The position numbers and the translations under genes were made by a program. Positions 26,811 through 57,123 of a DNA stretch of 64,000 bases are shown here, piece after piece (the first letter of the stretch is position 1; each line of letters begins with the position of its first letter). The stretch lies in NCBI RefSeq assembly GCF_036971445.1, contig NC_091470.1, forward strand, positions 142,476,001 to 142,540,000, written 5' to 3'. The notes below the pieces were generated by a model. It ran no database searches, was not told the DNA's origin, and worked only from the letters and a program-made list of their open reading frames with translations. This DNA comes from Narcine bancroftii (taxonomy: Eukaryota).

Positions 26811-26960
26811 TCAAATTTTGCTGATTTTTTTGTTGATCCACTTTATATACTTTGCTACATTTGTGTAAACACCTGGGTATTTGTAATGTGCACAGCTGAT
26901 CCCCCAGGAGACAATTCCTTGAACGACTCCGTTGCAGATCAATGGTCCTCCAGAATCACC
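26811..26960 (-). CDS. Serine protease A exon 5 (catalytic Ser, stop)
   Basis: tttcag|GGTGATTCTGGAGGA...[52 protein letters not shown]. Total CDS 762 nt, 253 aa. Confidence 0.94.
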
Positions 26961-28544
26961 CTGAAAGGGAAAACGTGGAAGAAAATCAGAATCTGGATGA
27001 GAAACTATCAATGATTTTAATTATATTCTCATCTCATTGATGTGTAGTTTTATACAGTAAAACCCCTAATATCTAGAATTCAAGCAACCAGCAAAACTAA
27101 TTGCGGAAAATAAACGGGAAAAAAAAACAAGCTTAAAATCGGCATGCCTCGCCATCACGCAACTGGAAAACTCGCTAGGTGCCGGATACCAGGTGTTTTA
27201 CCATATATTATCTTCACTGAGACAAACTCTGAGGCAAATAACTGAAGCATTTCTATTTTTAAGGCATTGACTCTGTCATTTTAATCTGTAAAATTAAAAG
27301 TGGTTGCAAATCAAATTTAAAATTTAAAAAGTCACAGAATGTGAGGATAAGATTAGTTGTGATGAAAGGTCATTGATCTGAAATTCTCTTTTCACAGATA
27401 TCATCTGATCTGTTGAGTATTTCCTGTATTTCTGTGTGTTTAGGAATTAATCCACTAATGGTAAGCATCCTCTGCCCCCTCCCCACTGGTCCTCCTGTAC
27501 ACATCCCTGCAGCAAAGTCTGAGCACTATTAATTTTGTATTTGGTGGTATTTGAGAAGATTGTGCATCTTCCTTTTTCTTCCAAAAGTGCTACCAATATT
27601 GTCTCACACCCCAACACACTCTTCTCCCTCCTCCCCTCAGTGAGAAGGCTTGAGAGTATGAAACCGTGCACCAACAGGCTCAAAGAGAGTTTCTTCCTGG
27701 CAGCCATCAGGCTCCTGAATGAACCCCACCAAAGTGCTGCCCTTGCTTGGTAGTAATGGATATTTCCTGTCACTGTCATTCTTTCCTCTGTAAACGAAGC
27801 TCCTGACTTGACTTGTATGAATGAATGTTAGAGATAACCCATCAGTATGTTCACAGAAGAACTCTTCTCACTGGATTTTGTGACAAATAAACTTGAACAA
27901 ACCTGATTTTTATGGTCAGAGAGGAAATCCTGGGTCACATCCTCTCTAGACTAGGACGTGTAGTTTAATTCCAATATCTCATGGCCGAGCAGCCTAATGA
28001 CTGTTCAGTTGTGAAGCTTTGAGTAGCAAGCATTCCTTACTAGGGACTTGCAATTAGCATTCAATTCTAGCTTACTTTTGAGTCTGCTTCCCATGGATGC
28101 TGCTTGACCTGCTGAGTTTATCCAGCACTTTAGTGTATTGCTTTGGTCTGCATCTGAAATAGCCAAGGGAATGCTGTCCCTCTCTGCCCATTGCAACATC
28201 ATATTACAACAGTTCTTTCTGTCAATACACATCTCAATGCGAAACATTCTCAGAACAATACAGACTAAATACACTGGACAACAGATTTTTCTTCCTGAAC
28301 ACTTTTGGGTGTGTTTTATGGATTTTGGGCTGCTGACCACAAAAATCACCTTAACATTTTTCTATCACGTACCATTTTTTGAATATAATCTATTTTTGTG
28401 ATTTTTCTGTCATATTTTAAGTCCACTTGTATATTGCCCAGAAAGCAAGCTATTTCAGTCAGTCCAAGTATTCCTGGACATGCACTCAGTGCAGGTGCTA
28501 TGCAAATGTTGTCATAGGCCTGGTCGTGCATGAAAGACATTTAT

Positions 28545-54760: not shown

Positions 54761-56973
54761 TGTCTCTGACATCCCCAATGAAGATGGCAGATTCCAATTT
54801 TTAGCAAAAAAATCTTGTGACATCGAGGTTGATGTGCTCCGCTCCCCATTCTCTCTGGTCCATTACAGCAGCTCCGGCAGCAATTCCTGGTAGTCACACG
54901 TTGTTTGGTAAAAATTACCTGTAATGAACAGCCGCACTAACACACGTCTAATGGAAGGCCATGGGGTCAATCAGCATGGAAACAAGCCCTTCAACCCAAG
55001 TATATGCTGATCATTAACCACCCATTTACATGGATCTCCATATTCCCATCATTCCCGGATTCTATCACCCATCTCTCCACTGGGGTGATTTGCAGTAACC
55101 AGTTGACATACAGTACTAGGGGATTGGGTCGGACAGGATTTTCGGATTTTCTGAATTCTCGGGTAGTACTTCTAAAATCCATGTTTAAGGGGGAATAAAG
55201 AAGATATGAACTGGTAAATTTTGATAGTTTATTCATTAGCAAAAACAGTATTCTTCATTTATAAAAACAAGTAGTTTTACAGAAAAATAAGGTCAACAGT
55301 GTGGTTGCTTCACCGTGCATCTGGCACGTACGTATCTGTGCATACAAAAGCCTGCTAAATATAAAAAGTTTGAGAGTTTTAAAAAAGTCAAGATTCTCAG
55401 GTGATCCGGATTTCTGGCATCTAGATTTTTGGACTTCTACTGTACAACCCAACACGTCTGTGGGATGTGGGGAAAAAAATGAGAGCACCCGCAAAAACCC
55501 CCCCTCACAGTCATGGAGAGCATGCAAACTCCACACAAACAGTGCTGGAGTTCAGGATTGAACTTGAGGCACTGGAACTCTGAGGGTGTCATTACTAGCT
55601 GAACACAGTGCTATTCCACACCAACCCTTTATCTCTCTCCAAAGCTGTTGAATAGCTTAAATCTTCCTCTGTGTTTTTCAGTTCCCAGCATCTGCCCATT
55701 TTCTAATTTGCTTTTGCACCACATTGTTGAATGGAACTGTAACAAGTGCATCAATTAATGAACCTGTCAGCCTTTAGGAGGCACTACCAGCTATGCCAGG
55801 TTCACACAGACCTCACTGAGCTGTCGACGCAGAGTGAAACACGTCTCTTGTAGTTGAAGGACACAGCTTTGGGTCCAGAGAGATTGGTGGCCAGACCACA
55901 TTCAATTTGATGACAAAGTGTGGATCCTCATGTATTGGAGTTCAGCCTCCAACCAGGTAATCAATAACCAGCACTTCCCTGAGGGATATGTCCTGGGGAC
56001 AAGGGTCCTCCTCACTCTAGTCCCCAGTCTGAGTGTAGATACAATGAGAAGTAATGCTAGGCCCCATACACTGTGGCAAAGGCCACAGAAAAGGTTCTGC
56101 TGGCAGTCTCAGAGCAGAGACACCCCCAAGGGCACAGAAACTGGATGAAGATGTCTGCTAGGAGAGCATCTTAAGGTGATGTGGTTAGCACTGGGCAGAA
56201 CAGTCTCTGATAGACAGCATCTTTCCTTTGGAGCTGTGGATCCATAACACTCAATGCCAACCAAGTGACCTCCTCCACAATCTAATCCACTCCAATAATC
56301 AGTTTAAGATTTAACTGAACCAAGAATAAGTTATCAATAAATGAATTCCTGATCCCTTTCCTGAACTGTTTCCATGGCTTTCCCTCATCTTGACATACCC
56401 CAAGAGGCAACATCAATTGAATGGGGATTTGCATGCTTGGAGGAGGGTGCCGTAGCTCCCTCCTGGTGGGTTTTTCAGTTAGCTCTTGAGGGTCTCTTGT
56501 CTGTAGCCTCCCAGCCCCCAGCTCACAGGATCCCACCGAGCAGTCATCTCTCTGATGGGATGGTCCAGCTCCCAAAGACTGTCGACCTCTTCCTCACTGA
56601 ATCTGTCCTCCCCATCTCTTGCTGCTGCCAGGGTGAGGGTGCTTGAAGGTCTGAAGAGGAGCTCAAAGGCTAAAGACTCTGGAATCTTGAGCAAAGATCT
56701 ACTGGAGGAACACAGTGTCCACGGTTAGAAATGGTCAGTCAGCCTTGTGCTGGGGAACCTTTAGTGAGACTCGTGAGAGCTCTCCCCATTTAGTGTAAGA
56801 GGCTGACTCATAAGCAAGTTGAAATCATGGGATCTACCACAGCAACTCCACTATTGTCACAGATGCCAGTGACAAGTGTGAGCAGCAAGTCCTGCCAACA
56901 GTGTTAGTTTTTAAACGTCTGCCCAGTGTCTTGTACCTTTACTGATCCCTGATATTCTATTTTTCTTTAACAG

Positions 56974-57123
56974 GGGGATTCTGGTGGTCCTTTAATCTGT
57001 AAAGGCAGAATATACGGGATAGTATCCTGGGGAAAGCTTTGTGGAGACGGGAATTATCCCGGGGTATATACATCTGTGGCCAGATTCCGCAACTGGATCA
57101 TAAGAACCATCAACCAATCATAA
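56974..57123 (+). CDS. Serine protease B exon 5 (catalytic Ser, stop)
   Basis: ttaacag|GGGGATTCTGGTGGT...[52 protein letters not shown]. Total 253 aa; AATAAA at 57194 and 57513. Confidence 0.94.

Follow-up and report, generated by a model that had tools for sequence, protein, structure and literature searches.

A 64,000-nucleotide stretch of the genome of the ray Narcine bancroftii (assembly GCF_036971445.1, contig NC_091470.1, positions 142,476,001 to 142,540,000 of the forward strand; here called the window and numbered from its first letter) holds two intact genes for S1A serine proteases, gene A and gene B, arranged head to head. They belong to a conserved S1A subfamily that has no name of its own and whose genes are built like those of class 6, with the introns by which granzymes and their relatives are defined, and trees of the proteins place the pair outside the vertebrate trypsins and outside granzyme A/K. 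With moderate confidence, we favor the reading that this is an old vertebrate subfamily, an early offshoot of the granzyme ('class 6') lineage that has kept the ancestral trypsin make-up, and that its members are secreted, Arg-activated and probably non-pancreatic.

Gene A and gene B are intact and share introns in phases 1-2-0-0

Motif scans gave the initial detection of the two S1A genes, one per strand, and the exons were then assembled from coordinates; exons 2-5 of both genes were found again independently by a profile-based spliced aligner to which no borders had been supplied. Gene A (- strand) and gene B (+ strand) have five coding exons each, and their stop codons, at 26811 and 57123, are the two ends of the reported interval. 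In gene A, coding exon 1 (42192..42243, -) encodes the signal peptide, with an N-terminus that is the same in the database protein P0029 and in orthologues, and is followed by a phase 1 intron. Exon 2 (37717..37867, -) encodes a short propeptide ending in Arg, then IIGG, the Cys42-58 pair and His57, and closes in phase 2; exon 3 (37475..37616, -) carries the calcium-loop residues Glu70 and Glu80 and the catalytic Asp102, with a phase 0 intron directly after DIMLLK. Exon 4 (32948..33214, -) encodes Asp189, runs continuously across the GWG motif without an intron at residue 149, and ends in phase 0, and exon 5 (26811..26960, -) supplies Ser195, Gly216, Gly226 and the stop codon. Gene B follows the same plan: coding exon 1 (47030..47081, +; signal peptide, phase 1), exon 2 (47740..47887, +; a propeptide ending QSR, IVGG and His57, phase 2), exon 3 (47977..48121, +; calcium loop and Asp102, with a phase 0 intron directly after DIMLIK), exon 4 (53749..54015, +; Asp189, no residue-149 intron, phase 0) and exon 5 (56974..57123, +; Ser195, Gly216, Gly226 and stop). 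The start codons lie 4.8 kb apart, and the region between them (42244..47029) is the presumed divergent promoter region. All eight introns have GT-AG borders, and the phases are 1-2-0-0 in both genes.

The two proteins have 253 residues each, are 45% identical to each other, and match Pfam PF00089 (E 4.6e-73) as S1A proteases with the triad and an Ile16 N-terminus. Alignment showed the His/Asp/Ser triad, Asp189, Gly216, Gly226, Glu70 and Glu80 to be intact in both, and each has eight Cys, at the aligned positions 42-58, 136-201, 168-182 and 191-220, with Cys22, 157, 128 and 232 absent. Exon 4 is 267 unbroken bases in both genes. The N-terminus is hydrophobic, the signal-peptide cut sites being assessed by eye, and the propeptide ends in QDR (A) or QSR (B) before I(I/V)GG. 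The calculated isoelectric points (pI) of the pair are 9.4 and 9.9, versus 4.9 for the ray pancreatic trypsin and 9.7 for ray granzymes. A sequence-only reading of the window had described such a head-to-head pair, with intact triad, tryptic pocket and calcium-loop Glu residues, phases 1-2-0-0 with intron 3 right after DIML(L/I)K, and eight Cys in these four pairs; the alignment, the exon build and the spliced aligner bear it out in each of these respects.

The gene B protein is identical, letter for letter, to P0326 ('trypsin-like [Narcine bancroftii]'), and its splicing rests on this identity, together with canonical sites and the spliced aligner; every sampled word of its exon 4 is present in sequencing run X1. 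The gene A protein equals P0029 ('trypsin-3-like', Narcine bancroftii) except at both ends. At the 3' end, the P0029 model leaves exon 5 early through a cryptic donor and finishes on a short exon at about 21150 (-), with loss of Gly226 and the C-terminal helix. Because Gly226 is present in 13 of 14 A-type proteins and X1 contigs pass the normal stop, this end is probably wrong or a minor form. At the 5' end, an upstream exon of the model (ATG 44147, -), which lies in the region between the two genes, joins an acceptor 10 bases 5' of the gene A ATG, and gene A may thus begin about 2 kb nearer gene B than coding exon 1 implies.

Contigs of run X1 fit the splicing of gene A. The run is only presumed to be RNA, and the data are contigs, so neither absence nor tissue can be read from them. 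For gene B exon 4, none of the runs listed as carrying it is on record as RNA, and three are presumed to be. A 711-letter X1 contig covers gene A exon 4, unbroken and with zero differences; the 88 letters to the left agree with the beginning of exon 5 and share a 30-letter overlap with a second contig that passes the stop codon into the 3' untranslated region, and the 356 letters to the right are accounted for by exons 3, 2 and 1 (345 letters) plus about 10 untranslated letters. Bin depths agree with this spliced reading (36.5 expected versus 37.2, and 69.1 versus 71). Since the joints themselves are not in the cut table, the splicing read from X1 is arithmetic on covered pieces. The gene A exons have almost no cover in runs X2, X3 and X5, which, for contigs, is not proof of absence. 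Run X1 also carries a synonymous difference in gene A exon 5, at window position 26925.

The intron layout of the pair recurs only in granzyme A/K models of the ray census

In passages of Weiss et al. (2021; PMC7914634), the Ciona trypsin holds both introns and the phase-0 intron near Asp102 is ancestral; class 2 (trypsins and kallikreins) lost the Asp102-side intron, and class 6 (the granule proteases) lost the residue-149 intron. Class 6 is defined there by its introns and takes in the granzymes, the chymase locus, the neutrophil proteases and factor D, the last of these being taken as the early form. By this intron definition, gene A and gene B are class 6: both have the phase-0 intron at residue 109/110, seven residues past Asp102, and neither has a phase-1 intron at residue 149. 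As in class 6, Cys128-232 is also missing from the pair.

A Pfam search of the ray genome gave 243 candidate exon matches, of which 150 were scored and part of the loci modeled, so that the resulting 49 automatic models form an incomplete census and include some spurious small exons. Within this census, 37 of the 49 other S1A models have a phase-1 intron at GWG (residue 149), and all of these lack a phase-0 intron after the Asp102 motif; nine more are partial or intron-free in the stretch from Asp102 to GWG. Three models share the layout of the pair at the same profile columns, with the Asp102-side intron at column 94 in the pair and in all three. These are granzyme A/K genes in one cluster on contig C8, and a tested exon of this cluster had PDB matches only to granzyme K and A. 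Searching the ray genome for more class 6 genes brought back this cluster, the pair and, in one case, the trypsin gene. The cluster (G000:C8:80.32-80.48 Mb; L030, L031, L036-L039) holds at least four genes, and in the model at 80.33 Mb the entire triad is apparently gone (His to Asn, Asp to Ser, Ser to Ala). Seven Cys are found in two of three full-length ray granzyme models (80.44 and 80.47 Mb), and the one aligned is without the 191-220 pair.

The ray pancreatic trypsin gene is on contig C11 and has DDDK, 12 Cys and phases 2-1-0. It is the single one found (G000:C11:183.38 Mb; L014), with a partial, probably broken duplicate just upstream. About 3 Mb from it lies a gene that we labeled kallikrein-like (L016, G000:C11:180.18 Mb), a 12-Cys class 2 gene with phases 2-1-0, Glu189 and Ser226. 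The sequence-only reading had contrasted the 1-2-1-0 phases and extra disulfides of pancreatic trypsin with 1-2-0-0 as a granzyme-type layout, and the ray genes agree with it on both counts. The four-disulfide set, which it had also taken as a granzyme mark, turned out not to be diagnostic, given the seven-Cys ray granzymes and passages of PMC12844481 in which tunicate trypsin has this set.

The pair combines class 6 introns with trypsin chemistry

Set against vertebrate pancreatic trypsin, the pair has about 45% identity, the same S1 pocket, Glu70 and Glu80, and the same fold; a predicted model of the skate gene A orthologue (predicted local distance difference test score, pLDDT, 79.6) returned the trypsin fold in a fold search, with a template modeling (TM) score of 0.93 by target length. 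The pair differs from trypsin in having no DDDK, four rather than six disulfides, and introns in phases 1-2-0-0 rather than 1-2-1-0. Tissue kallikreins have class 2 introns and the trypsin-type extra disulfides, neither of which occurs in the pair. With granzyme A/K the pair has in common the intron layout, Asp189, a cationic pI and the four-disulfide frame, but it has SWG and Ser190 as in trypsin, lies on another chromosome among other neighbors, and has Arg before Ile16, where ray granzymes have the acidic dipeptide in GEE directly before IIGG. Granzyme propeptides are dipeptides removed by cathepsin C. Compared with class 6 as a whole, the pair is set apart by its trypsin calcium-loop acids, Arg-ending propeptide, trypsin-level likeness and separate locus. 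Its family also has a lamprey member, whereas passages of Akula et al. (2015; PMC4646688) trace granzyme A/K back to cartilaginous fish and report nothing similar in lamprey; the locus of the pair does not come up in those passages.

Invertebrate chordate trypsins resemble the pair in several of these traits. Amphioxus trypsin (P0044) has a short Arg-ending propeptide and the calcium loop, as the pair does, although the amphioxus domains have six Cys and, unlike the pair, group with vertebrate trypsins. Ciona trypsin has the Asp102 intron of the pair but keeps both introns and an acidic propeptide, as described in passages of PMC7914634, where the acidic run is said to guard trypsinogen against self-activation. 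Tunicate trypsins (Ciona and Boltenia, taken from the papers) have four disulfides, as the pair does, and passages of PMC12844481 date the gain of the two further bonds to before or at the lamprey stage. The sequence-only reading had seen a mixture of trypsin and granzyme traits. Because the Asp102 intron and the four disulfides are ancestral in chordate trypsin (PMC7914634 and PMC12844481, in part), the pair is not such a hybrid.

The family extends from lampreys to reptiles

Orthologues of gene B were found in sharks, rays, elephant shark, paddlefish, sturgeons, gars, many teleosts including zebrafish, and lampreys, and among tetrapods in a frog, turtles, geckos, an anole and a snake; mammals and birds did not appear among the matches listed (the best 120 of 6533). 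The 14 gene A orthologues are all from cartilaginous fish, and the matches listed (best 120, in word-limited searches) included none from bony fish or tetrapods. A representative search (50% clusters), in which multi-domain proteins dominated, added four further single-domain members and one fused fish granzyme pair. Automatic annotation labels the family members 'trypsin' or 'trypsin-3-like', and the protein-cluster names obtained for it were all generic ones (trypsin, granzyme H-like, venom protease). The elephant-shark gene B orthologue is labeled Si:dkey-33m11.7, and the Danio rerio orthologue is P0359. The zebrafish gene si:dkey-33m11.8 may be the orthologue of gene A; both si:dkey names are mere clone names.

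The family alignment comprised 164 proteins (14 A, 146 B and 4 from a second lamprey gene), with isoforms and close species counted. Each of the eight core Cys is present in 160-164 of the 164, the trypsin-only Cys (22, 157, 128, 232) in none, Asp189 in 160, and Arg preceding the mature N-terminus in 159. Position 70 is less uniform, being Asp in 105 of the 146 B-type proteins and Val in the four from the second lamprey gene. Position 190 is Ser in A and most shark B proteins and Ala in 131/146 B proteins. An extra C-terminal Cys occurs in 106/164 proteins, many of them bony-fish B-type, and could possibly link a dimer or the propeptide.

Partial or mis-spliced models from elephant shark, clownfish, damselfish and two carps (P0007, P0018, P0020, P0360, P0361) break at the exon-4 borders, and one carp fragment is exon 4 alone, continuous across GWG. 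From the annotation of these partial models we infer that bony fish have the same intron layout. In lampreys, the second gene adjoins the B-type gene and encodes the eight core Cys (proteins P0293-P0298); because one model (P0295) is a tandem fusion of the two lamprey genes (XP_032801376 and XP_032818105), the head-to-head arrangement of the ray may be a derived one.

In trees, the pair falls outside the vertebrate trypsins and granzyme A/K

Three trees were built: a quick one with 56 rows, a careful one with 43 (13 rows dropped), and an ingroup tree of 28 rows from which the distant outgroups and five B rows had been removed. The quick and 43-row trees were concordant. In the 43-row tree, the A proteins formed one clade (100/100), B proteins and one lamprey gene a second (99/96) and granzyme A/K a third (100/99), while vertebrate trypsins and the kallikrein-like ray gene joined amphioxus trypsin (91/93). 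On these trees, the pair lies outside both the vertebrate trypsins and granzyme A/K. The ingroup tree split {amphioxus + vertebrate trypsins} from {pair, lamprey genes, granzymes} at 99/99, and an approximately unbiased (AU) test on it rejected a topology in which the pair was held with vertebrate trypsins (p-AU 0.004), which makes descent from pancreatic trypsin unlikely. The second lamprey gene joined granzyme A/K (87/78), with both on long branches, and could be either a sister of the granzymes in jawless fish or an artefact of long branches. In the kind of phylogeny that the sequence-only reading had called for, the pair nested in neither the trypsin nor the granzyme A/K clade, and the view of a distinct S1A subfamily stood, but with outgroups the base did not resolve.

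Several results weigh against an early granzyme-line branch. The A, B, granzyme and trypsin groups of the 43-row tree join, together with the second lamprey gene, at an open fork, and granzymes fall outside pair + trypsins, at only 65/65. A clade of pair + granzymes was not recovered in that tree, nor was it rejected (p-AU 0.278), and pair + vertebrate trypsins was likewise not rejected (p-AU 0.234). The ray granzymes have biased composition, and one of them is a long branch. The 99/99 split amounts to a clade only with the root on the trypsin side, and the 28-row tree was made after the first had been seen. Granzyme A/K alone represent class 6 in the trees, which contain neither factor D, granzyme M or chymase-locus proteins nor any tunicate sequence. 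The best PDB sequence and fold matches of the pair are trypsins, and the shared intron trait is a single loss that could have occurred twice. A sister relation between the pair and the granzymes is therefore favored by the introns and the ingroup tree but not proven.

Genomic surroundings

An exon with a PID_2 domain (FAM43-type) lies about 50 kb past gene B (L068:9319-9999), and a CaM-KIIN (CAMK2N-type) exon about 85 kb past it (L072:5057-5482). About 50 kb past gene A are exons (L056-L059) with a weak cold-shock-domain match between them (E 0.03), which we take to be a probable Y-box protein gene. FAM43B and CAMK2N1 lie together at human 1p36, which is not known as a granzyme or trypsin locus. 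Other neighbors expected from human 1p36 were not adjacent to the pair: a DDOST match is 15 Mb off on the same contig, and a MUL1-type match is on another contig. No deaminase match was found near the pair. Elsewhere in the window, retroelement pieces of reverse-transcriptase and RNase H-like type lie in different frames at 60315-61101, and long C-rich and G-rich arrays of tandem repeats (period 24/48, 40 and 19-53 bases) occupy 7407-9747, 10008-11482 and 13856-14153.

Discussion

In the reading that we favor, the chordate ancestor would have carried both the residue-109/110 and the residue-149 intron (PMC7914634, in part); pancreatic trypsins would have lost the 109/110 intron, and a common ancestor of the pair and the granzymes would have lost the one at 149. 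It is possible, although we hold it only tentatively, that the pair instead arose independently from the ancestral chordate trypsin as a third lineage, with its own loss of the 149 intron and no closer to granzymes than trypsin is; its likeness to granzymes would then reflect common ancestry and one parallel intron loss. The open fork of the 43-row tree suits such a lineage, as does the ancestral nature of most shared traits (PMC7914634 and PMC12844481, in part); it would need two losses of an intron that 37/49 other ray S1A models have kept, and the amphioxus-rooted ingroup tree unites pair and granzymes.

We regard it as very unlikely that the pair are ordinary descendants of pancreatic trypsin, extra digestive enzymes comparable to kallikreins or PRSS58-type proteins whose introns and disulfides changed later. 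Their identity to trypsin, their best PDB matches, the retained calcium-loop Glu residues and the AU test on the 43-row tree would all allow this. It would, however, demand that the Asp102 intron was regained in the same place and phase and that two disulfides were lost in 164/164 family proteins; the ingroup tree rejects it, amphioxus trypsin is nearer vertebrate trypsin than the pair is, the propeptide has no acidic run, no PTF1-like site precedes the genes, and the true trypsin gene is on another contig. Equally hard to credit, and rated by us as highly improbable, is that they are true granzymes, cathepsin C-activated granule enzymes of cytotoxic or myeloid cells. An identical intron layout, a cationic surface and a tryptic pocket like that of granzyme A/K speak for this; the pair nevertheless falls outside the well-supported granzyme A/K clade, nearly all family proteins have Arg before Ile16 in place of the acidic dipeptide of ray granzymes, and the ray granzyme cluster is on another contig.

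In the favored reading, each protein would be secreted as a zymogen with a propeptide of roughly three residues ending in Arg, and a trypsin-like enzyme, whether itself, its partner or another, would cut after this Arg and free Ile16. Because the propeptides have no acidic run and no cathepsin C-type dipeptide, the simplest route is that a trypsin-like enzyme activates them, or perhaps that they activate one another. The mature, strongly cationic enzyme would then cut after Arg or Lys outside the cell, and both genes may be driven from their shared divergent promoter. In S1A proteases, Ser at position 190 permits Lys and Arg, and Ala gives an Arg bias; the Ala190 of most B proteins thus suggests a bias toward Arg. 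A PTF1-like bipartite pattern has a site about 140 bases before the ATG of the ray trypsin, against a background of one site per 200 kb, and the same pattern has none in the 4.8 kb that separate A from B. Given a single positive control, this absence is a weak hint against a pancreatic role. With modest confidence, we suggest that the role is limited, non-digestive proteolysis at a probably non-pancreatic site.

The description of the subfamily as poorly characterized and auto-annotated as trypsin has held: our search of open-access main texts, with supplements and subscription journals outside its scope, found no study of the family and one passing mention. This is a zebrafish knockdown clotting screen (PMC7590325), passages of which give si:dkey-33m11.7 as positive in the primary round and unmarked in the secondary; supplement 1, in part, lists si:dkey-33m11.7 and.8, both with an intact triad and without a human homologue. 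A 'Trypsin-3-like' entry in passages of a halibut vesicle proteome (PMC7830382) could not be tied to this family, and passages of a shark skin proteome (PMC10707392) held nothing relevant.

The value of recognizing this subfamily is both evolutionary and practical. Many fish, shark and reptile proteins named 'trypsin' or 'trypsin-3-like' are probably not digestive trypsins, and such names can lead expression and proteomic work astray. For the origin of granzymes and neutrophil proteases, the family is a concrete candidate for a missing early branch, with class 6 structure, ancestral trypsin chemistry and lamprey members, which its zebrafish orthologues make testable. More speculatively, the lamprey-to-reptile family might be the least-changed surviving class 6 branch, predating granzyme A/K, with the second lamprey gene as the missing jawless-fish sister of the granzymes. 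In that case, the family would show in a present-day form how a secreted trypsin activated after Arg gave rise to the granule proteases of blood cells.

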